Below, one piece after another: positions 6,986-50,941 of a stretch of 64,000 nt of DNA. Made by a program: the position numbers and the translations under genes. How positions within the stretch are numbered: position 1 is the first letter of the stretch; each line of letters begins with the position of its first letter. Below the pieces are notes generated by a model that saw only the letters and a list, made by a program, of their open reading frames with translations, searched no databases and had not been told where the DNA came from. This DNA is from Ostreococcus lucimarinus (taxonomy: Eukaryota). The DNA lies in assembly GCA_000092065.1 (NCBI GenBank), contig CP000583.1. The stretch is one strand, 5' to 3'.

Positions 6986-8103
6986 TTACACATCAATGTT
7001 GAGCGAAATATCTAACGCGGTGACGCTGTGCGTGAGCGCACCGCTGGATATGTACGTCACGCCTGTTTGGCCGATGGCGTGGACGGTGTCTAGGGTGACG
7101 TTACCCGACGCCTCGGTGTCGACTCTGCCGTCGATGAGACGCACGGCGGCGGTCATGTCCTCCACGGACATGTTGTCGAGCATTAAACGAGTGACGCTGC
7201 CCGTCGGGACGTTCGGGTCGTCCAGAAGCGCGATCACGGTCTTCACCTCGTCCATCGTCCGCGCTTCGACCTCAATCTTGACGTCTTTGAGATTATTTTC
7301 GAGTAAATACTTTTCGCACGCCTCGACGGCGGCGGCGATGCCGCCCGCGGCGGCGATGTGATTATCCTTAATCATCACCATATCGAACAACCCTATTCGG
7401 TGATTCTTCCCGCCACCGATCAACACCGCCCATTTATCGAGAACTCGCAGGCCCGGGACTGTTTTTCGCGTCTCTAACATGATCGCCGGAGCCGCCGCCG
7501 CCGCGTACGCCGCCGTCATCGTCGCGATCCCGCTCATCCTTTGCATAAAGTTCAACACCACTCTCTCCGCGCGCAGGATGCTCCTCGCGCTTCCCGTGAC
7601 CCGCATGAACACCTCACCGCGTTCGATTCGTTCGCCATCGCGCTTCATCCACTCCACCTCTAACTCTGGGTCCACCGCCGCGAGCACGACGCTCCCCAGG
7701 TGCTCGCCCGCGAGCGTCCCGGTCGCCTTCGCCAGCAGCGTCGCCGTCGAGCGCGTGCTCGCGGGGATCGTGCTCAGCGAGCTCACGTCACCGACGTCAC
7801 CGACGTCCTCTTCGAGCGCGGCGCGCACGACGGCGTCGATCGAATACGTCGGGTGCGGCGGCGGGGCAATCTTCGGCGCGCGCGCGGCTTCGTCGGCGCA
7901 GCGCATCGCGCGCGAGACGACGCGCGCGCGCGAACGATTCGACGCGCGCGCGCGCGCGCTGATTCGGGCTCCCGGACGCGAGGGCGACGACGACGCAGCG
8001 CGCATCGGAAGCGCGGCGACGAGTGGCGCGCTATCCGCGCGCGCGCGCGAGGACGAACGACTCTCGAAATCGTGTACATTGCGTTCGGTGATCATCACAA
8101 ACA
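6986..8103 (-). CDS. QPRT: Quinolinate phosphoribosyltransferase (nicotinate-nucleotide pyrophosphorylase, decarboxylating) with organellar presequence
   Basis: The C-terminal 290 aa match the QPRTase family throughout (...[13 protein letters not shown]..., TRLMLDNM..., [10 protein letters not shown]...). The ORF runs up to 8377, but the saposin-like gene ends at 8152, so the start is placed at the ATG at about 8103 (MFVMITERN...). Confidence 0.8.
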
Positions 8104-8151
8104 TCGCGGGAGAAAAGAATCGAAATCGTGAACGATCGCGAGCGTCGTCGC

Positions 8152-8877
8152 TCACTTCGGGCACACCCCGAGGCGCGCGCACACGTTTTTTAAACTCGAC
8201 GCGAGCTCGTCCAACAGCACCGGGACGTACGGCTCGACGACGGCGTCGCACTGGTGCGCCAACTCCGCCCCGAGCGCCGCGCACAGCGCGTCGACCTCGC
8301 CGACGACGAACGATATCGTCGAATTCGCGCGCAATTCGTTCGCCAGCAAACGGCTCGCCATGACGCAATCCGCGCACGTCTCGTCGCTCGCCGACGCGTC
8401 GCCCCGCGCCGCCGCGCGAATCCTCGCCTCGTCGTCATCGCTCGTCACCATCGCCCCGCTCGCGTCCGCGACGGCGTCTTCGTCACCATCGCACATTTCC
8501 AGCGCCTTGCACGCCGCGTCACCGAGCTCGGGGTGATTTTCCAGGTACCGCGTCGCGAATCGCAGCCCGGCTTCGCCCGCCGCGACGCACACCGACATTT
8601 GACTCGCCTCCCCCCGCGTCGCTTTCGCGCACGCCTCCGCGATCGCCGCCGCCATCTCTCCCTGAAACTGTCCCTGTTCGATCTTCGCCTCCACCGCGCG
8701 CATGAACGTCTCGCACGCGTCGCAATCGCTCGTCGTCGTCGCGCGCGCGGTGCCCAGTCGCCATCGCGCGTCGTCGACGTCCAGCGCTCTCGCGCGCGCG
8801 GGCGTCGCGCGCAGCGCGCACGCGAGCGCGAGCGCGAGCGCGACGATCGCGCCGCGTCGCATCGCGCCGCGTCGCAT
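8152..8877 (-). CDS. Secreted saposin B-like (SapB) domain protein
   Basis: The internal ATG at 8877 gives [24 protein letters not shown], a signal peptide. This is followed by Cys-patterned amphipathic modules ([12 protein letters not shown]..., ...[11 protein letters not shown]..., ...[10 protein letters not shown]) typical of saposin-like domains. The upstream part of the ORF overlaps the divergent FCP1 gene and is rejected. Confidence 0.55.
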
Positions 8878-8967
8878 CGCGCGATGGCGACGGGGCGACG
8901 GCGACGCGCGCGGAACTCTGCGGACCGTTCGAGCCGGCGCGGCATCCGACGACGCGCGCGCGACGCG

Positions 8968-10431
8968 ATGCGCGCGAGCGACGACGACGGCGCGCGCGAC
9001 GGCGCGCGCGAGGACGACGACGCGTCCTCGAGCGAGGATTCCCTCGCGGACGCGCTCGAGGCGGAGCTGTTCGCGAGCGAACGCGACGACGCGGAGACGG
9101 ACGACGCGAGGCGGGCGACGGTGGGAAGCGCGCGCGCGCGCGAGGGACGCGAGGACGACGCGCCGAGGGTGGTGCGACGAAAGACGAACGCGCTTGGGGC
9201 GATTAAGGGGGCGAGCGCGGGAGAGGCGTGCGCGCATCCGGCGTTCATGTTTGACATTTGCGTGGTGTGCGGCGAGCGGCGAGCGACGGAGGACGCGCGG
9301 GGGGGCGCGGCGCGAGGGAGGGACGAGGGCGACGGGAGAGGGTTGCGCGGACACTTTACGACGTCGATGAAGTACATACACGAAGGGTTGACGCTGTCGA
9401 ACGAAGAGTTGGAAAAGGCGAAGCGGGAGGAAAAGGCGCGCGTGTTGCAAAACGGCAAGTTGACGTTGATTTTAGATTTAGATCATACGCTGCTGAATTC
9501 GACGCAGTTTAAGGAGTTGACGCAAGAGCAGCACGATTTGTTGCACGAGTGCATCGCGCGAGAGGCGGAGGGGTTGAAGGAAGGACAGCGACCGATGCTG
9601 TATTGCTTGCGTCACATGGGATTTTTCACAAAGTTGAGACCGCACGTGTTTGAGTTTTTAGAATCGGTGTCGAAGATTTGTCAGCCGTACGTGTACACGA
9701 TGGGGGACAAGCCGTACGCTAGAGAGATGGTGAAGCTGATTGATCCCGAAGGGACGATTTTTCACGGACGCGTGATTTCAAACAACGACTCCACGAGCTC
9801 GCACGTCAAGGATTTGGACATCGTTCTCGGCGGAGAAGCGAGCGCGATCATCGTCGATGACACCGAGCGCGTTTGGCCGCAAAATCAGGGCAATTTGATA
9901 CGTCTCGACCGCTATCACTTCTTTCCGGGAAGTGCGTCTTCGTTCCAACAAAAAGGACAATCCGTGATGGAGAGCTCGATGGTGGACGAAGGCGAGCTCG
10001 GTTCGGTGGGTAGTCGGGCCGTGCTCTTAGACGTATTGGCCGTCATAGAGAGCGTACACAGGAGCTTTTTCAAAAACACCGACGATGGAGAGGAACCGGA
10101 CGTGCGCAAGCTGCTCATTCATCCCGACCGCGCGGACTTACCGCTGAGCGGAGTCAAGTTTATGATGAGCGGCGTCACGACGCTGGGCGATCGAAGACCT
10201 GAGCGCCATCCTCTGCGACTACTCGCGTCCACGCTCGGCGCCGAGTTCGCATCATCCATCGAACGCGATGGCAACACCGTCACGCACGTCATCGCTCGCT
10301 CATCTGGTACCGATAAAGTGAAGTGGGCGAGAAAGACGAGCGGTCGCGTCTTCGTCGTCGAGCCCGGGTGGCTCGTCGCGTGCGCCAGGGCGAACACTCG
10401 AGTCAGTGAATCGCTGTACGAGCTCCAGTAA
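8968..10431 (+). CDS. FCP1: RNA polymerase II CTD phosphatase FCP1-like (FCP1-homology phosphatase domain plus C-terminal BRCT)
   Basis: DxDxT catalytic motif LILDLDHTLL, an FCP1/NIF-type HAD domain (...YVYTMGDKPYAREMV...IVDDTERVW...) and a C-terminal BRCT-like domain (LSGVKFMMSGV...HVIAR...VFVVEPGWL). The start is placed at the first ATG downstream of the divergent saposin gene (MRASDDD). The ATG at about 9247 is an alternative. Confidence 0.72.
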   Translation: MRASDDDGARDGAREDDDASSSEDSLADALEAELFASERDDAETDDARRATVGSARAREGREDDAPRVVRRKTNALGAIKGASAGEACAHPAFMFDICVVCGERRATEDARGGAARGRDEGDGRGLRGHFTTSMKYIHEGLTLSNEELEKAKREEKARVLQNGKLTLILDLDHTLLNSTQFKELTQEQHDLLHECIAREAEGLKEGQRPMLYCLRHMGFFTKLRPHVFEFLESVSKICQPYVYTMGDKPYAREMVKLIDPEGTIFHGRVISNNDSTSSHVKDLDIVLGGEASAIIVDDTERVWPQNQGNLIRLDRYHFFPGSASSFQQKGQSVMESSMVDEGELGSVGSRAVLLDVLAVIESVHRSFFKNTDDGEEPDVRKLLIHPDRADLPLSGVKFMMSGVTTLGDRRPERHPLRLLASTLGAEFASSIERDGNTVTHVIARSSGTDKVKWARKTSGRVFVVEPGWLVACARANTRVSESLYELQ

Positions 10432-10539
10432 ATAAATTAACCGTAGACTAGAGTTGTCATTCGAGTAGGTATCCGTAGTCCCGCGCGCTTTCGGAAAGCG
10501 GCTTTCCATTCCGTCCCCGTCCGACGGCGCTCCAACTGT

Positions 10540-12480
10540 ATGCGCTCCTCAGAGTCCGACGCGATGAGCGCCACCGCCCGGCGCGGCTGGCGCGTTCCCG
10601 TGGTGGCGTTCATCACCGGCGTTTTCATCGCTACCGCGGTGTTGACGCGCGATTACACCGTCGGCGACGACGTGCTCGCCGCGCTCGTCGCCGGTGAAAT
10701 CTCGTCGATTAATGCTCAGGCGAGCGATTTCTCCTCTTTGCCGACGCCTCGCGCGCGAGCGAGCGATCCAGACGTCGACAACGCGCGTTGCTTTGAGCTG
10801 TGCGCGATCTTGCGCGCGGGTGTGGACGCGCGAACGAGGATTGGGGCGCTGGAGCTGCGGTCCTCGGCGCGAGCGGCGCTCGCGGCGACGAAACTGAGCC
10901 TGGCTCTTTGGGCGCGCGTGTTCTCGCCGGCGACGAACGCGATAACGGAAGGCGTCGTGCGAGGAACGCGCGCGGGGGGTCGGAGACTCGCGGTGATCGT
11001 GCGGGAGACAGAACCGAGGGTTCTGGCGCAGTGGGTGCTCGCGTGCGTCGGCGCGGCGTACGTGTATCACTTGTGCTGGCGGTTCGTCAAGCACTTGAAA
11101 CGGGCGCGATATAGGAACAAGCTTAGGTTTTTCATCATTAGGATGAGATTGCGCGCGTCGCGGCGGGTGCGAACGGCGTTGGAGCCGTACGCAAGGGTTT
11201 ATAGGCGAGTCGCGAGCGCCGGGACGGCGGTGAAGCGACGATATTCGCTCGTCGTGCGAGGAATACGTAGTAAAAGTCGATTGGCAGCGAACGCGTTGCC
11301 GCATGCGTTGTTTTTAGTCGTCGGGATGGGTGTGTTTCGCGTCATGCCGCGATATGCGAGGAATATGGTGCGGAAAAGAGAGATTTTGGCGACCATCTCG
11401 CTCCTCGTGCCGATGTTTCGAACCATGCTCGCCGTGGAGAGCGAAGACATGGCTCTTGTCGAAAAATGGTTGCGTTTCTGGGCATCGTGCGCGCCGTTCA
11501 TGATAGCCGTTGATTTTCCGTTCATATTCTACGGTGTTAGGTGGTTCTTTCCGTGGTGGCCCGAAGTTTTAGTGCTGTTTACGATGTGGTTGAACTCGCG
11601 CCTCACGCGCGGTAGTCAAATCATTTTGGAATTTTCCACACCGCTCGTTTCTCGGGCGATGGCGTACTTGAACGAGTCCAGTGGTACGACGGGTAAGATT
11701 TCCATACTTCTTCGTCGTTCGGTTCGACAAGCACTGCAGATTAGTGTCATCGTCATTCGCTTCCGTTCCCGACGAGCCTCAGAGGCGCTCCGCCTCGTTC
11801 TCGACAATATGAGCATTCCGTTGGTGATGTGTACGGTGTTTTTCTTCACACCAGGGCTGATGACGATATACGGTTGCGACATGGCCGGATTGGTCGTTCC
11901 GTTCGCGTTCACGGTGGACGGATTACTCAAGTATGCGCAATTGAAGGCGCAACCGCAACAGCCCAGTCGCGCGCAAGCTCGCAAGGACTTAGAAAAGCTC
12001 CATGAAGATAAGCTTCGAAACTGGTTGACTTACTGGCTCGCACATGCGATGATTTGGTCGCTGTCGCAAGAGCTTTCAAAAAGCGCACTCGGGTGGTTTC
12101 CGCTCTGGCGGCACACGCAACTGGCGGGAATTTACTGGCTTCAAGTATTCGGCGGCTCGCAACTCATCACGGCGCGCATGCAGGGTATCAAACAATCCAT
12201 CCTAGAGGATCATCAGAAAGCGTTAAAAGCAGCGATTTCAGCCGACTTGGACGCGTCCGAAGTCGAGGAACTGGCAAAGTTGAAAAAGACGTTGGACGCC
12301 TCGCAGCCTAGCGTGGAAACGACGCTCGACGAAACCTCAATTGACGACAAGAAGGATGATTCAAAACCCACCGATACCGATGGCGACGTCGACGCGGAAA
12401 CGATCACAAAATTAGACGTAGGAATCACCGCCGAGACCGTGCGCAAGCGCACGCCGACGGACGCGAACGGCTCGAACTGA
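10540..12480 (+). CDS. Membrane protein with two tandem TB2/DP1/HVA22 (REEP/Yop1-like) domains
   Basis: 646-aa ORF from an ATG. Two HVA22-family signatures: ...VEKWLRFWASCAPFMIAVDFPFIFYGVRWFFPWWPEVLVLFTMWL... and ...LRNWLTYWLAHAMIWSLSQELS...GWFPLWRHTQLAGIYWLQ.... Multiple hydrophobic hairpins. TGTAA sits 8 nt after the stop. Confidence 0.6.
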   Translation: MRSSESDAMSATARRGWRVPVVAFITGVFIATAVLTRDYTVGDDVLAALVAGEISSINAQASDFSSLPTPRARASDPDVDNARCFELCAILRAGVDARTRIGALELRSSARAALAATKLSLALWARVFSPATNAITEGVVRGTRAGGRRLAVIVRETEPRVLAQWVLACVGAAYVYHLCWRFVKHLKRARYRNKLRFFIIRMRLRASRRVRTALEPYARVYRRVASAGTAVKRRYSLVVRGIRSKSRLAANALPHALFLVVGMGVFRVMPRYARNMVRKREILATISLLVPMFRTMLAVESEDMALVEKWLRFWASCAPFMIAVDFPFIFYGVRWFFPWWPEVLVLFTMWLNSRLTRGSQIILEFSTPLVSRAMAYLNESSGTTGKISILLRRSVRQALQISVIVIRFRSRRASEALRLVLDNMSIPLVMCTVFFFTPGLMTIYGCDMAGLVVPFAFTVDGLLKYAQLKAQPQQPSRAQARKDLEKLHEDKLRNWLTYWLAHAMIWSLSQELSKSALGWFPLWRHTQLAGIYWLQVFGGSQLITARMQGIKQSILEDHQKALKAAISADLDASEVEELAKLKKTLDASQPSVETTLDETSIDDKKDDSKPTDTDGDVDAETITKLDVGITAETVRKRTPTDANGSN

Positions 12481-12485
12481 ACGCG

Positions 12486-12528
12486 ATCGTGTAAAAACAG
12501 TTAAACAGTTACGCCGCGTACAGTTACA
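12486..12528. terminator. Convergent 3' ends: TGTAA poly(A) motifs for both the plus-strand HVA22-domain gene and the minus-strand secreted-protein gene, inside a 91-bp intergenic spacer
   Basis: Plus cgTGTAAaaac at 12488-12492, 8 nt after the stop. The minus-strand TGTAA is the reverse complement of cagttacaac at about 12519-12528. The transcripts must nearly abut or overlap. Confidence 0.4.
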
Positions 12529-12571
12529 ACGCTTCTCGCGTGCCTAAATTCACCACTCCCTAATCAATCAT

Positions 12572-13183
12572 CTATTCAATCGACGCCGAAAACGGCAATC
12601 TCTCGTTCAACACCGTCACATTCGTCCGTCCCCACGTCTCCGGATGCACCGCGTACGTCTCCGTGATCTCGTCCACGAGCGCCATCGACGTCTCGTCCGC
12701 CTCCGCGAAGCACGCGTGCGCTCGTCCCCACTCCGCGTGTCCTCTCGTCGCGATGAAGAAATCCGGCCCCGACCCGATCACGCACGCGTACCCTCGCGCC
12801 ACGATCGGCGCCTCGCCCTCCGCTCGTCCTCGCAATCCCTCCAGCGCGCCCTGCAGCAGCGCGTACGGCGGTCCCGGTCCACCGTAGCCATCCCTCGCGC
12901 CCGCCTCGGGCGTCGCCTCCGCCCTGTAAAACGACCCTCGTCGCGCCGCGCCGCCCGCGAGCTCGCGCGCGAGCGTCGGCGCCCAATCCTCGCGCAGCCG
13001 CAGCGCGATCGCGCGCGCGTCGCCGGCGCCGTCGCCGTCGAGCGTCAATCGCAGCGTCGCCCCGCGCGCGCGCTCCGAGTACCCGACGAACGCGTCCTCG
13101 CGCGATATCGCGCGCGCGCTCGACGCGCGCGGGCACAGCGCGACGACGAGCGCGACGACGAGCGCGCGACGCGCGCGCGGCAT
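12572..13183 (-). CDS. Hypothetical secreted protein (signal peptide)
   Basis: The ATG at 13183 gives MPRARRALVVALVVALCPRASSARA, a signal peptide, followed by a 180-aa Gly/Ala/Arg-rich domain with 4 Cys. The longer ORF up to 13615 would overlap the divergent ARPC2 gene and is rejected. Confidence 0.35.
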   Translation of the reverse strand: MPRARRALVVALVVALCPRASSARAISREDAFVGYSERARGATLRLTLDGDGAGDARAIALRLREDWAPTLARELAGGAARRGSFYRAEATPEAGARDGYGGPGPPYALLQGALEGLRGRAEGEAPIVARGYACVIGSGPDFFIATRGHAEWGRAHACFAEADETSMALVDEITETYAVHPETWGRTNVTVLNERLPFSASIE

Positions 13184-13302
13184 CGCGCGCGGACGAGTGC
13201 GCGCGCGGTCGACGGACGGACGCGTCGATTGAAACGCGGCGATTGCGCGACGACGCGCGTCATTCAGCGACACCGCGCGACGCGCCGAGCGAGCGCGACG
13301 CC

Positions 13303-45856: not shown

Positions 45857-46093
45857 CTGTGGGAGTGGAAAATAGATACTGAACGTAAGTCGAAGGAGCG
45901 CGGCGAAGCGAGTAGACGAAATGTCGCCAAATCGACGGCTTGAACGATGGAGTTGAGGTCTCAAAGCTCGGTGTCGCGTCGATGCGAGGCGAGTGATATA
46001 TGCAAGCTATGTCCACCACCGCGCGTTACGTGCAAACGCGCGAGGCCCTTATGTTGCGAAGTCAAACGACCGAAGCGACGCTCGAAGACGTAC

Positions 46094-47172
46094 CTATACA
46101 AACACATGGTGTTCGGAATCCATCGAAGCTGGCTCACCGCACCACCGTGCGAGAGCGTACCTCTGGCTTGACACGAATTCGTGTCCCAAATGATAATTTG
46201 CTTATCCAGCGAGCCGGTGGCGCACACCGGCATGATGTCGCTGAATCCGACGGCTTCGATGGTTTCCGTGTGCGCCACGAGCGGCGCCAGAACTTTCCCA
46301 GTCGTCGTGCTCACCAATCGAGCGGTGTTGTCTTCGCTCCCGGTGATGGTTAATCCCAGCGTCGATGGATGAAACGCGACGCACGTGAGCGGACCGTCGT
46401 GGAACGGATGCCCGCGGAACGCGTGTTCGCACGCTCCCGTTCTCGGTTGCCACACTCGCAACGATCCGTCGTAAGACCCGGTGACGACTTGCTTACCGTC
46501 GGGCGTAAATCCACCGCACGACACGCGCTCACTGTGTCCACTGAACACTTGCATGAGCGCACCGTCGTCGCCGTTCCACATCCACGCCGTGAAGTCTTCG
46601 CTCCCCGCGAGCGTCACGCGTCCTCGCGGATGCCACGCCACCCACTCGATTCCCCCGCCCGGTCCCTCGAGCGCGCGTTCGACCGCGCCCGTCTTCCCAT
46701 CATAAATGCACACCTTTCCATCGAGTCCACCCGTGGCGAGCAAGCCACCGTCGGCGCTGAACGCCGCGCACGACACGCTCTCCCCGTGTCCTCCCAGCTC
46801 TCGCGCCTCCCCCGCGCCTCGTCTCAAATATCCCTTATCGTCCCCCCCGCCGCTCACCACCGTCGCCTCCGCGCCGTCGTTCGACCACGCCACCGCGTAC
46901 ACCGGCGCGTCGTGCGTCGCCGCCACGCATTCCGCGTCGTCCCTCGGCGGCGCGATCGTCGTCGACGCCGCCGCGTCCCGGTCCTCCGTCGTCGTCCCGT
47001 CCCCATCCATCGCCTCGTCCTCCGCCTCGTCCTCGTCGTCGCTCGACATCGGCGCCTCGTCGTCCTCGTCCAGGTCCGCGACCTCCTCGTAATCGTCCGC
47101 CGCGGGATCGATGAAGGCGTCCTCGACGTCGTCGTCGTCGTCCTCCGTCGCCGCCGCCGCCGCGTCGTCCAT
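46094..47172 (-). CDS. AAMP: AAMP exon 1: acidic N-terminus plus WD40 repeats
   Basis: ATG at about 47172 gives MDDAAAAATEDDDDDVEDAFIDPAADDYEEVADLDEDDEAPMSSDDEDEAEDEAMDGDG... followed by ...HDAPVYAVAWSNDGAEATVVSGGGDDKGYL...GHGESVSCAAFSADGGLLATGGLDGKVCIYD...IEWVAWHPRGRVTLAGSEDFTAWMWN...GPLTCVAFHPSTLGLTITGSEDNTARLVSTTTGKV..., collinear with human AAMP. The exon ends ...CLY + AG with donor GTACGT (minus strand). The intron is about 237 nt. Confidence 0.75.
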
Positions 47173-47364
47173 CGCGCTCGAGCGCCGCGCTCTATCGCCT
47201 CGCGCGCGCGCCGCGCGCTCGACCGCGGGCGACGAAATCGTCGCGCGCGTCGCGTCGACGGCGTCGGTCGCGATCGACGCGCGCGCGTCGTCGAGTGCGG
47301 CGGCGGCGCGACGGATGGTCGACGGACGGTCGACGACGCGCGCGCGCACACGACGACGCGCGCG
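47173..47364. promoter_or_regulatory. 192-bp divergent promoter between AAMP (minus) and NFU1 (plus)
   Basis: Head-to-head ATGs at 47172 and 47365. Both flanks are deeply covered by GC-driven antisense ORFs that are not genes. Confidence 0.4.
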
Positions 47365-48231
47365 ATGCTGCGCGCGATGCGTCGGCGCGCCGGCGCGCTC
47401 GCGCGAGAGGCGCGCGCGCGCGCGCGCGCGACGACGACGACGACGACGGCGACGGCGACGGCGACGGCGACGACGCGACCGCGAGGCTTGATGACGTTGT
47501 CGACGCGCGAGACGATTTCGTCGCGCGCGGCGCCGTGGACGGCGCTGACGACGACGACGGCGCCGACGACGACGGCGCCGACGACGACGACGCGCCGGGG
47601 CGCGCGAACGATGTTCATTCAGACGCAAACGACGCCGAATCCGATGAGCCTGATGTTTCAGCCCGGGCGCGAGGTGTACGCGGAGGGGTCGAAGAATTTT
47701 TCAAACGCGAGGGAAGCGATGGCGAGCCCGCTGGCGAAGCGGTTGTTCGCGATCGAAGGCGTCACGAATGTCTTCTTCGGGATCGACTTCGTGACGGTGA
47801 CGAAGGGCGAAGACGCGGAGTGGGAGACGGTGAAACCGCAGACGTTTGAGGCGATTACGAACTTTTACGCGAGCGGAGAGACGGTGATGGACGAGGAGAA
47901 ATTGGCGGCGAGCGGGACGGCGATCGCGGAGGACGACGATGAAATCGTGGCGATGATCAAGGAACTCCTCGAGACGAGGATTCGACCGGCGGTGGCGGAA
48001 GACGGGGGAGACATCGTGTTCAAGGCGTTCGATCCCGAGAGCGGGCTCGTGACGGTGCAGTTGCAAGGCTCTTGCGACGGGTGCCCTTCGTCGAGCGTGA
48101 CGCTGAAGAGTGGGATCGAAAATATGCTGATGCACTACGTGCCCGAAGTCAAGGGCGTGGTGCAGGCTGGGCAAGACGACGGCGAGATGGATTTGCTCGA
48201 CTTGGCGGATTTGCATCGAGGGCGAAAGTAG
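47365..48231 (+). CDS. NFU1: NFU1 iron-sulfur cluster scaffold protein (NifU-like, mitochondrial)
   Basis: Presequence MLRAMRRRAGALAREARARARA..., then the Nfu_N domain MFIQTQTTPNPMSLMFQPGREVYAE...LFAIEGVTNVFFGIDFVTVTKGEDAEWETVKPQTF, then the NifU C-terminal domain ...VAMIKELLETRIRPAVAEDGGDIVFKAFDPESGLVTVQLQGSCDGCPSSSVTLKSGIENMLMHYVPEV with the CxxC motif. Collinear with human NFU1. The exact start is uncertain. Confidence 0.75.
   Translation: MLRAMRRRAGALAREARARARATTTTTTATATATATTRPRGLMTLSTRETISSRAAPWTALTTTTAPTTTAPTTTTRRGARTMFIQTQTTPNPMSLMFQPGREVYAEGSKNFSNAREAMASPLAKRLFAIEGVTNVFFGIDFVTVTKGEDAEWETVKPQTFEAITNFYASGETVMDEEKLAASGTAIAEDDDEIVAMIKELLETRIRPAVAEDGGDIVFKAFDPESGLVTVQLQGSCDGCPSSSVTLKSGIENMLMHYVPEVKGVVQAGQDDGEMDLLDLADLHRGRK
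47411..47470. repeat. Simple repeats: (CG)10 followed by (ACG)n/(GGCGAC)n
   Basis: cgcgcgcgcgcgcgcgcgcg acgacgacgacgacgacggcgacggcgacggcgacggcgacgacg, inside the NFU1 presequence region. Confidence 0.7.
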
Positions 48232-48371: not shown

Positions 48372-49490
48372 ATGTCGTACGGCGCGACGCCCGGCGCGAC
48401 GATCGATGCCGATTCGTCGTTCGGGCGTCGACGCGAGGACGGCGTGCGCGTGTCGCCGCGCGCGCTGCTCGGCGCGATCGCGGTGGCGTGCGCGGCGGCG
48501 CTCGCGGCGCACGAGGTCGGACGGTCGACGGGCGCGCGGCTCGGATTGAAGGCGGGGCTGGGACTGTGCTCGTGCGAGTGTCGGTGCGACTCGGACGGCG
48601 GCGGCGGCGGCGGCGGCGCGCCGGCGCTGTCCGTCGCGCGAGGCGCCGCGGCGAACATGCCGAAGACGCTGTTGGATGTCGAGGTGACGGATCCGCGGCG
48701 TTGCGGGACGTTGGCGGCGGAGCGTAATTACAGCGCGTGGGTCCACTACGACGAACACGTCGAGGCGGCGGAGAAGCGAAACAGGTGCGCGTTTTACGAC
48801 ATCTTCGGCCCGTTCGCCGGGGACGAGACGGACGAACACCGGGTGACTGGATGTTCGGTCCCGGGCATGACGCCGCTGGGCGGATGCGGAACGGTGCGAG
48901 GCTGGCACAGAACGGCGTCGCAGGCGTACGCCATGGGCATGGGCAACGCGCCGTCGTCTAACGTCTGTCGACAGTTCGCCGCCCAACACGGTTACGAAGC
49001 GTGGCTCTGGCTCTCCCCGGCGCACCCCGAAGCCGCTCGCAGGAACTCGTGCGTCTTCTACAGCGCTTTCCACTCGGCGCACGCGGACGAGCCCGGGGAC
49101 GTCATTCACGGCACCGCGTGCACCAATCCTCACGCCTCCGTCGCCAACGGCTGTCGCAACCACGCGCGACACGCTCAAAACGAAATCGAGGGTTGGGCAC
49201 ACGCGACGCACACCTACGCAGAAGGCTTCGGCAAAGCCAAGGGTCCGGGTGACTGCAAGCGATACGCCAAGCAACACGGATACCCGAGTTTTCTCTTCAT
49301 CAACGAAAAGCACCCGTCCGCGCAGCACCGTTTCAGTTGCGCGTACTACCTCAGCAACGGGGCGGGCGAGGTTGAGCCGGGATGGGGGCCGTACTCTGCG
49401 TCGACGCAAATCGTCAACAGCGGGAACGACGACATTCACATTCTCGGGTGCGCCGACGACTCGAAGACGCCGCTCGAAGGGTGCGCGTGA
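48372..49490 (+). CDS. Cysteine-rich secreted or type II membrane protein with three tandem copies of an unassigned ~85-aa 4-Cys repeat
   Basis: ATG at 48372. Hydrophobic segment ALLGAIAVACAAALAAH, then CSCECRCDSDGGGGGGG, then three repeats. Repeat 1 starts CGTLAAERNYSAWVHY...RNRCAFYD...GCS...GGCG. Repeat 2 starts CRQFAAQHGYEAWLWL...RNSCVFYS...GTAC...NGCR. Repeat 3 starts CKRYAKQHGYPSFLFI...RFSCAYYL...LGCA...EGCA. The shared pattern is C-x2-[FY]A-x-[EQ][HR][GN]Y-x-[AS][WF] ... R-x-x-C-[AV]-[FY]-Y ... GC. Confidence 0.6.
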   Translation: MSYGATPGATIDADSSFGRRREDGVRVSPRALLGAIAVACAAALAAHEVGRSTGARLGLKAGLGLCSCECRCDSDGGGGGGGAPALSVARGAAANMPKTLLDVEVTDPRRCGTLAAERNYSAWVHYDEHVEAAEKRNRCAFYDIFGPFAGDETDEHRVTGCSVPGMTPLGGCGTVRGWHRTASQAYAMGMGNAPSSNVCRQFAAQHGYEAWLWLSPAHPEAARRNSCVFYSAFHSAHADEPGDVIHGTACTNPHASVANGCRNHARHAQNEIEGWAHATHTYAEGFGKAKGPGDCKRYAKQHGYPSFLFINEKHPSAQHRFSCAYYLSNGAGEVEPGWGPYSASTQIVNSGNDDIHILGCADDSKTPLEGCA

Positions 49491-49690: not shown

Positions 49691-50941
49691 TCATCGTCGA
49701 GCTAACTTGCGTTCGTCGCTATCGATCTTGCCGCCGAGAGCCTCTTCGAGTTCCGAAACGCCCGCCGCATCGGTGTCCGTTCGCCCGCTTAAGAGGCTCG
49801 AGAACCAGTTGTACGTCGACGTTCCGAGTCCGAGTCGACTTTGTAAGCTACATTTCGAGTCAGCCATTTCGTCCGTGAACCGGTCGGAGTCGCAGTGACA
49901 GCTGTGACCTTTCGGTTCGTTGAAGTTCAACACCGACGTCTTCACCGGGCACAACCCAAACGTTTGATCGAGCAACGTCTTGAACTTATTATCTCGCGCG
50001 ACGGCAACGATGGTGAGCTCGATCCCAGAATTCGGTGTGGCGAAAATATCATCCCACGCACCGTGATCGACTCTCAAGTACGCCGTCGGCGTGGCCTTTC
50101 CATCGGCATCCGCGCTCGCGCCCGCGAGATAGACTGAGTACCCGTACTGCGCGACGAGCTTAACTTCCCCCAGTAACGCCTTACGCTGCGCCTTGCTCGT
50201 AATCTCACGTCGCCAAATAATCGTACTGACTTTTCCACTCGCCAAACCTTTCTTGAACCGCGCGAATTGCGAGCGAGAGCGCTTCGCGTCGTTGATCAAA
50301 ACCGTCAGCTTCGCCTTGGGCGACGTCTTCGCGATTTGCTCAAACTCCTCATCGAGCTGTCGACTCACTCGTCGATCGTTCCATAACTTCTCCACTATCG
50401 AATTGTCGTGTCCGAGATCCTTCAGCGTCGCGCTCAACGTCTCCACCGCGCGCTCGTCCACGTACGTCCTCGTCTCGCACTCAAACGCTCCCGCGTTCGC
50501 CATCGCGTTCACCCAAAATCCCATCTTCGTCGCCATCCCCGCGTCCACGCTTCCCCGCCTTCGCATCACTCTCGCATCGTCGCCCTCGCGTCCGGACCCT
50601 GGTTCCGGCAATCCGATCGTCATCACCACGCACGGTCCCGGCGCGTGTCTCGCTCGCACCGTCAACGCCAGCTCCGCCGCGATGAAATCCGCCCGCGCCT
50701 CCCTCGCGCTGTAGTGACACGCCCGGTGCTCGAACCACGATCGCTGCGTCTCTTTCAGCGTTCGCACGCACCGCGCGTCCAGCGCCGGGTCGTACGCGCC
50801 GCCCAGCGATACCTGCGCGAGTCCGAGCGCGAGCGCGACGACGGTGGCGAGCGCGACGCACGCGGCGCACGCGCGGCCGCGCTTGACGCCCTGGCGCAGC
50901 GCGCGCGAGCGCCGACGAAGTTGCTCTTTGCTCAGCCCCAT
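49691..50941 (-). CDS. Type II membrane protein (short cytosolic N-terminus, signal anchor, large lumenal domain); possible Golgi glycosyltransferase-like, function unverified
   Basis: 416 aa starting MGLSKEQLRRRSRALRQGVKRGR, then the anchor ACAACVALATVVALALGLAQV, then a 370-aa globular domain with 8 Cys (...CHCDSDRFTDEMADSKCSL). I recognise no signature. Confidence 0.45.
   Translation of the reverse strand: MGLSKEQLRRRSRALRQGVKRGRACAACVALATVVALALGLAQVSLGGAYDPALDARCVRTLKETQRSWFEHRACHYSAREARADFIAAELALTVRARHAPGPCVVMTIGLPEPGSGREGDDARVMRRRGSVDAGMATKMGFWVNAMANAGAFECETRTYVDERAVETLSATLKDLGHDNSIVEKLWNDRRVSRQLDEEFEQIAKTSPKAKLTVLINDAKRSRSQFARFKKGLASGKVSTIIWRREITSKAQRKALLGEVKLVAQYGYSVYLAGASADADGKATPTAYLRVDHGAWDDIFATPNSGIELTIVAVARDNKFKTLLDQTFGLCPVKTSVLNFNEPKGHSCHCDSDRFTDEMADSKCSLQSRLGLGTSTYNWFSSLLSGRTDTDAAGVSELEEALGGKIDSDERKLARR

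Follow-up and report, generated by a model that had tools for sequence, protein, structure and literature searches.

A 64,000-nucleotide stretch of Ostreococcus lucimarinus DNA (contig CP000583.1), referred to here as the window, carries on its plus strand a complete, intron-less open reading frame (ORF) at positions 48372..49490, which encodes 372 amino acids (aa) followed by a stop codon. The translation is identical to P0035, a 372-aa 'hypothetical protein' at NCBI (966,062-bp record, 190 contigs). Behind an N-terminal hydrophobic segment it contains three tandem copies of a four-cysteine module. The gene probably encodes a type II surface protein with three divergent PAN/apple-type binding modules. 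The gene has a G+C content (GC) of 0.68 and a GC at third codon positions (GC3) of 0.83, and lies among densely packed genes in surroundings of about 60% GC.

A word-indexed protein search returned, besides the self-match, orthologue clusters with 85% (P0002), 80% (P0003) and 42% (P0004) identity to the protein. These originate in marine metagenome or SRA assemblies with 62-65% GC, and cluster members of the three-module protein are frequent in marine metagenomes. All 16 cysteines of the ectodomain are kept among the orthologues, even at 42% identity. A transcript from MMETSP (P0006, 122 aa) corresponds to the repeat-2 region of an orthologue, with about 57 residues matched. P0006, the only transcript evidence found, diverges on either side of the matched part (MYIYDYMTM... 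and ...SEIAIATHCTLDW...), pointing to an assembly that is frameshifted, chimeric or partly processed. The ratio of nonsynonymous to synonymous substitution rates (dN/dS), calculated by the Nei-Gojobori method, lies at 0.23-0.31 between close orthologues and at 0.37-0.38 in comparisons with the distant one. Because orthologues exist, their dN/dS is well below 1 and a transcript covers part of an orthologue, the ORF at 48372..49490 is a real gene under purifying selection.

The first 30 residues of the protein (48372..48461, +) form a tail with a basic cluster (FGRRREDGVRVSPR), read in the sequence and probably cytosolic according to the positive-inside rule. The VRV motif and the basic cluster of this tail are kept in four of four orthologues. 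The tail is followed by a hydrophobic segment at aa 31-49 (ALLGAIAVACAAALAAHEV; 48462..48518, +), where the Kyte-Doolittle profile reaches its 19-residue maximum of 1.89, and which we read as a signal-anchor or transmembrane helix. A helix spanning aa 29-52 is predicted at this place in a low-confidence full-length model. Five Arg residues flank the hydrophobic segment on its N-terminal side, versus three basic residues on its C-terminal side. The juxtamembrane CxCxCxC motif (C66-S-C-E-C-R-C72, with Cys66/68/70/72; 48567..48587, +) lies further on, and the sequence GLCSCEC[RH]CDS that contains it is unchanged in four of four orthologues. This cluster lies about 19 residues past the hydrophobic segment. 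Inter-chain disulfides with oligomerisation, or metal binding, are possibilities for it, offered as guesses. The seven-glycine linker at aa 76-82 (48597..48617, +) differs in length and composition among the orthologues, as a flexible spacer would. More distant relatives (P0049, P0051 and P0052) repeat the whole plan of tail, transmembrane segment, small cysteine motif and three modules: each has an equivalent of the hydrophobic segment, and the CxCxCxC site is represented by QCECTCTC in P0049, PCFC in P0051 and DCDC in P0052.

Two alignments were used to define the module. The first, A3, holds 12 units, the three repeats having been cut from each of four orthologues; the second, A5, holds 65 domain instances of the family, the window repeats included. 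Module 1 covers aa 95-173, with Cys111/139/161/172 (48654..48890, +), and is supported by the family profile (E 3.2e-21) and by repeat alignments. It carries the only N-glycosylation sequon of the protein, N119-Y-S, which is kept as NYS or NFS in the orthologues. Module 2 covers aa 174-263, with Cys199/227/250/261 (48891..49160, +; profile E 1.1e-24), and is the one that was modelled. Module 3 covers aa 270-372, with Cys295/323/360/371 (49179..49487, +; profile E 1.3e-19), and in A3 has about 20 inserted residues following the second Cys. Local alignment of the repeats with one another gave scores of 75-136, compared to means of 25-28 for shuffled sequences (z = 10.5-21), and none of 1000 shuffles reached the observed values. 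The N-terminal strand 'xGW..A...Y' that precedes the first Cys is kept in repeats 2 and 3 and belongs to the unit. The window repeats possess the four cysteines together with the landmarks 'C..xA', 'RNxC[FY]' and 'D..H.xGC'. Within the 64-kb window the family profile matches the three repeats and nothing else, these repeats themselves being three of the 65 A5 sequences.

Most of this layout had been noticed in an earlier note on the same DNA, made from the letters alone. The hydrophobic anchor, the CSCECRC motif and the glycine run which it described are present at aa 31-49, 66-72 and 76-82, and its three tandem four-cysteine repeats are borne out by the z values and by the invariant cysteines. 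The motif skeleton that it proposed holds overall, except that repeat 1 has Leu at the [FY] position and that 'GxC' is really G-C or A-C. Its repeat ranges (aa 123-200, 214-300 and 305-372) are shifted, the first of them cutting off Cys111, and are better replaced by those given above.

The structure of repeat 2 was modelled with A5, with a mean predicted local distance difference test (pLDDT) value of 92.9 and a predicted template modelling score (pTM) of 0.83. The model comprises short N-terminal strand segments, a helix (23-33) and three further strands (37-41, 53-57 and 73-77). It thus shows, within the usual 70-90 aa or so, one α-helix lying on an antiparallel β-sheet, as in the PAN/apple fold. 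Structural comparison of the module model placed the apple domain of plasma kallikrein highest (score of 8.2, with 74 residues aligned at 2.6 Å), followed by chain 6o1g_A, listed under factor XI and plasma kallikrein (7.9), yeast Wsc1 (7.3), Sarcocystis SML-2 (7.3), Toxoplasma MIC4 (7.2), plasminogen (6.7), the HGF N domain (6.6), AMA1 (5.9), the WSC domain of Kremen1 (5.7), leech antiplatelet protein (5.4) and the MANEC domain of HAI-1 (5.1). The best PDB match of the A5 profile was apple domain 2 of kallikrein (E 0.04), the module side of the alignment reading 'eeCrqlAke.kgykawghrnekhpdeeyrntCff'. A5 was also compared by hhalign to the four aligned apple domains of the factor XI heavy chain, the sequence used being 100% identical to PDB 12bn_A, and the register obtained was the same as in the HMMER alignment to kallikrein. 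In both, Cys1 of the module falls on apple C28 and Cys2, that of 'RNxC', on apple C58. From the predicted structure, the modules most likely belong to the PAN/apple structural superfamily, as a divergent sequence family without annotation.

The first apple domain (A1) of factor XI contains three disulfides, C2-C85, C28-C58 and C32-C38. Compared to the apple domains of factor XI and plasma kallikrein (Pfam PAN_1, PF00024), the module shares 9-11% identity and is undetected by the Pfam PAN models, and it has four invariant cysteines, not six. The second Cys of the apple C-x3-C pattern is a nearly invariant Ala: the position Cys1+4, equivalent to apple C32, is Ala in at least 90% of the 65 family sequences and in three of three window repeats, and the strand that follows is devoid of Cys. 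Cysteine is also absent from the N-terminal part of the module, which leaves no N-to-C clamp, and the last two cysteines are spaced by 10-11 residues at the C-terminus. We infer that Cys1-Cys2 is the retained core PAN bond C28-C58 and that C32-C38 was lost. Cys3-Cys4 would then form a new local C-terminal hairpin in place of the apple N-to-C clamp. Co-loss of cysteine pairs was sought across 240 domain instances as a guide to pairing; losses were too few for this purpose, 219 instances having all four cysteines. Compared to the apicomplexan microneme lectins (Toxoplasma MIC4, Sarcocystis SML-2, Eimeria MIC5 and the AMA1 domains), the module has no detectable sequence similarity and a different cysteine pattern.

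Several observations weigh against a PAN/apple-type, membrane-anchored protein. The Foldseek search of the PDB gave weak matches: factor XI and kallikrein came out on top, with a best E of 0.28 (factor XI) that is not significant alone. The hhalign probability for A5 against the four factor XI apple domains is only 23% (P 9e-4 over 41 columns), and the two sequence alignments differ on the residue that replaces apple Cys38. None of the 65 domain instances is matched by the Pfam PAN models, even with a threshold of E<=1, and the module is recognised by none of the sequence libraries searched (Pfam-A, NCBIfam, PHROGs and PDB sequences). The PAN assignment thus draws mainly on a predicted, not a solved, structure, and the proposed disulfide pairing on alignment only. 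The full-length AlphaFold model, built from four orthologues, is poor (pLDDT 43) and was kept for its secondary-structure pattern only. Finally, the hydrophobic segment ends in AAALAA|H and could be a cleaved signal peptide, in which case the protein would be secreted and not anchored.

Several individual library searches were uninformative. Pfam gave noise only for the whole protein and for each repeat (Peptidase_M78 with E 0.03-0.05, DUF2828), its PAN models had no match to the protein or the repeats at E<=10, phmmer of the protein against the PDB found nothing, and the A3 profile gave chance-level PDB matches only (GIP receptor and an aminotransferase). The NCBIfam and PHROGs searches yielded nothing useful, and literature searches on PAN/apple domains in Ostreococcus or prasinoviruses returned no description of the module. 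The word-indexed search was of no use for distant relatives, giving with profiles 2 matches from 140-192 candidates. Because it misses such relatives, an exhaustive search was needed, and hmmsearch was run with the A3 profile over 1.84 billion cluster representatives (clusters at 50% identity). This retrieved 166 representatives with E<=1e-3, 48 of them at <=1e-10 and 8 at <=1e-30. The matched proteins are 77-1388 aa long and contain 1-5 copies of the module. All four cysteines are present in 219 of the 240 domain instances detected, and the family consensus is ..GW.G...NP..KNQT.E.CRQ.AL...GKYVAWGYRN..HPDP..RNTCFLY....F.PF.GN..D..H.TGCL.PGEKV..GCK.

In 92 full-length members scanned with Pfam, no family covers the module. 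The scans revealed its partner domains: F5/8 type C, ricin-B, tectonin, B-lectin, PAN_1/2/4, TSP1, Hint, collagen and beta/gamma-crystallin. The PAN matches in these relatives are separate domains located between module copies. In P0060, for instance, a Pfam PAN_4/PAN_1 match at 231-278 stands in an array with modules at 135-221, 313-399 and 411-499. The earlier note had called the repeat unrecognised, without a match to WSC, and had suggested a lineage-specific extracellular binding domain. No match of the repeats to Pfam or to PDB sequences was found, and Pfam WSC in particular matches no window repeat, so that the description stands at the sequence level; it is to be qualified by the predicted PAN/apple fold. 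The partner domains are typically of extracellular type, in agreement with the suggestion. The lineage restriction does not survive, given the breadth of the exhaustive profile search. Another repeat was seen in one member, P0050 (locus L009, 35% GC): its residues 1-200, which precede four modules, hold three copies of about 60 aa with the pattern …W.DEG.GN..YLDRH.I.C…L..LKLVR..DAQG…Y.Y.C. This unannotated repeat is not matched by Pfam and may represent another unrecognised domain.

The family is found in contigs of cellular eukaryotes and in giant viruses of marine algae. Foldseek comparison of the module model to BFVD, a collection of predicted viral structures, gave five matches at E<=1e-3, with probability 1.0, TM-scores of 0.69-0.84 and 16-27% identity. 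Among them are C7U035 (TM-score of 0.84, 27% identity) and A0A7S6NYG7, a protein of Bathycoccus sp. RCC716 virus 2. Viruses of Ostreococcus, Micromonas and Bathycoccus are the presumed source of C7U035 and the E5E... accessions. Further down the list are proteins of other giant viruses that carry a PAN/APPLE annotation. Many family members lie on AT-rich, giant-virus-like contigs. One such contig from IMG/VR (L005, 38% GC) encodes a ribonucleotide reductase with an intein, a YqaJ recombinase and a 934-aa transmembrane protein made of two modules and a ricin-B lectin domain. The reductase gene of L005 (1156-4059, -) specifies the large subunit, split by the intein at residues ~284-437 (Intein_splicing, Hom_end_hint). 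A second IMG/VR locus (L006), taken from a 148-kb viral contig that also carries PhoH and UDP-glucose dehydrogenase, encodes a 546-aa protein with a transmembrane segment, one module, a Pro-rich stalk and a second transmembrane segment. A third contig (L010, 40% GC), with PCNA, an SNF2 helicase and DUF285, encodes P0060 at 8001-9500. The module is often preceded by an N-terminal transmembrane anchor, as in the 934-aa protein, in the 546-aa protein and in P0197. The viral relatives thus share the same module by profile (E to 1e-50 for multi-copy proteins) and by structure. However, they fuse 1-4 modules to ricin-B, canonical PAN, Pro-rich stalks or a C-terminal anchor, and they lack the CxCxCxC motif. 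On the cellular side, P0051 is encoded on a contig of 54.6% GC (L007), whose other ORFs include two that, judged from sequence alone, look like a fragment of a UbiA-type prenyltransferase and the N-terminus of an SMC protein; they suggest a cellular eukaryote. No synteny with the window was found on that contig.

For the algal protein we favour a type II orientation, with the N-terminus inside, the C-terminus outside and the modules exposed outside the cell or in the secretory lumen, because five Arg residues precede the hydrophobic segment, the tail is conserved, the fold would need an oxidising compartment and the sequon is conserved. The protein would be inserted into the endoplasmic reticulum as a type II protein. 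Each module would fold with two disulfides, the Cys1-Cys2 core PAN bond between the helix and the 'RNxC' strand, and the Cys3-Cys4 hairpin. The three modules would then be exposed, at the cell surface or within the lumen, as units that bind proteins or glycans and serve adhesion or recognition. PAN/apple, WSC and microneme apple modules bind proteins or glycans. Because of this, and because the partners of the family include ricin-B, F5/8-C, tectonin and B-lectin domains, transmembrane anchors and Pro-rich stalks, a role in surface recognition or adhesion would be, by analogy, the most economical reading. Ostreococcus has neither wall nor scales, and its surface molecules are poorly known.

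A more specific proposal is that the module is a recognition unit shared by host and virus. The algal protein would then stand at the attachment interface as a receptor, as a decoy or as the source of a viral adhesin, and its CxCxCxC cluster would oligomerise it at the membrane. This proposal is based on the likely display of the module by a picoalga and on the occurrence of the same module in membrane-anchored giant-virus proteins, some with ricin-B or canonical PAN domains. We regard it as doubtful.

Four other explanations were weighed against that of a surface protein with divergent PAN/apple-type modules. Long spurious ORFs are common in GC-rich DNA, and six overlapping ORFs of at least 60 aa occupy the same interval, as would be expected if the ORF had arisen by chance and no gene were present. 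However, the reading frame is preserved among the orthologues, whose dN/dS is well below 1, their ectodomain cysteines persist down to the most distant member, each repeat matches the family profile at E<=1e-19, and the MMETSP transcript exists. A chance ORF is refuted by this conservation and deserves practically no credence. An extracellular fold that is wholly new, confined to one lineage and unrelated to known cysteine modules would account for the absence of any Pfam, NCBIfam, PHROG or PDB sequence match, be it for the protein or for single repeats, and for a word-indexed search that gave only four close homologues. Such novelty is largely refuted, the predicted fold being of PAN/apple type and the exhaustive search having reached far beyond one lineage, and we hold it to be very improbable.

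The protein might also be a WSC-type surface sensor, that is, a glycan-binding head on a single-pass stress-signalling protein like yeast Wsc1, which is among the higher-scoring structural matches of the module. However, WSC domains have eight cysteines versus four in the module, Pfam WSC (PF01822) matches no window repeat and only one of the 65 family domains, at E 0.031, and the three-module protein differs from Wsc1 in membrane orientation and tail. Wsc1 is a type I protein whose cytosolic signalling tail is long; in the algal protein, the non-luminal part would be the 30-residue N-terminal tail only. The host, moreover, presumably has no cell wall. We consider a WSC-type sensor unlikely. 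A further possibility is that the gene was gained recently from a prasinovirus, or is the remnant of an integrated viral gene. The five BFVD matches with probability 1.0 and the many members on AT-rich, giant-virus-like contigs point in this direction. Yet its base composition is host-like (GC 0.68, GC3 0.83), and when 2.9 million viral contigs were scanned using the orthologue alignment, no close copy of the gene turned up. Furthermore, its nearest non-orthologous relatives (P0051, P0052 and P0055) are GC-rich and share the plan of tail, transmembrane segment and three modules, one of them lying on the 54.6% GC contig, and the flanking NifU and WD40 genes are ordinary cellular genes. A recent viral origin is therefore improbable, and the surface protein with three PAN/apple-type modules remains our preferred reading.

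This reading turns a 'hypothetical protein' of one of the smallest free-living eukaryotes into a testable candidate for a surface protein with three PAN/apple-type modules. Its family comprises at least 166 clusters (50% identity) without annotation in the searched libraries and is common in marine metagenomes and on giant-virus contigs. If A5 were turned into a Pfam-type model, many proteins without a recognised domain would gain an annotation. The rewired disulfides, if true, would be a clear case of a disulfide-rich module diverging beyond sequence recognition. The sharing of the module between algae and giant viruses provides candidate genes for studies of attachment and host range. The size of the unannotated family, the presumed rewiring and the sharing between a picoalga and giant viruses are modestly surprising; another PAN-like adhesion module is in itself not astonishing.

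In the window, a NifU/Nfu gene ends 140 bp upstream of the three-module gene, and WD40 genes lie further upstream. At 45961-48231, ORFs of 620 aa (+) and 555 aa (-) overlap heavily and show Arg- and Thr-rich low-complexity extensions. At the corresponding positions, the near-identical contig L001 has a 245-aa Nfu_N/NifU protein (+) and a 462-aa WD40 protein (-). The long extensions of the 620-aa and 555-aa ORFs are read-through artefacts of GC-rich DNA. Downstream, a convergent 416-aa ORF (49691-50941, -) without a Pfam hit lies 200 bp from the three-module gene. With its basic N-terminal tail and hydrophobic anchor (RACAACVALATVVALALGLAQV), it looks like a type II membrane protein as well. 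The idea that it forms a functional pair with the three-module gene was dropped: the two are adjacent in L001 and not in the locus of P0002 (L003). About 2.4 kb beyond the three-module gene, L001 encodes at 9655-13245 another large, putatively extracellular protein, at least 1900 aa long, which matches Laminin_G_3 and, faintly, TIG.
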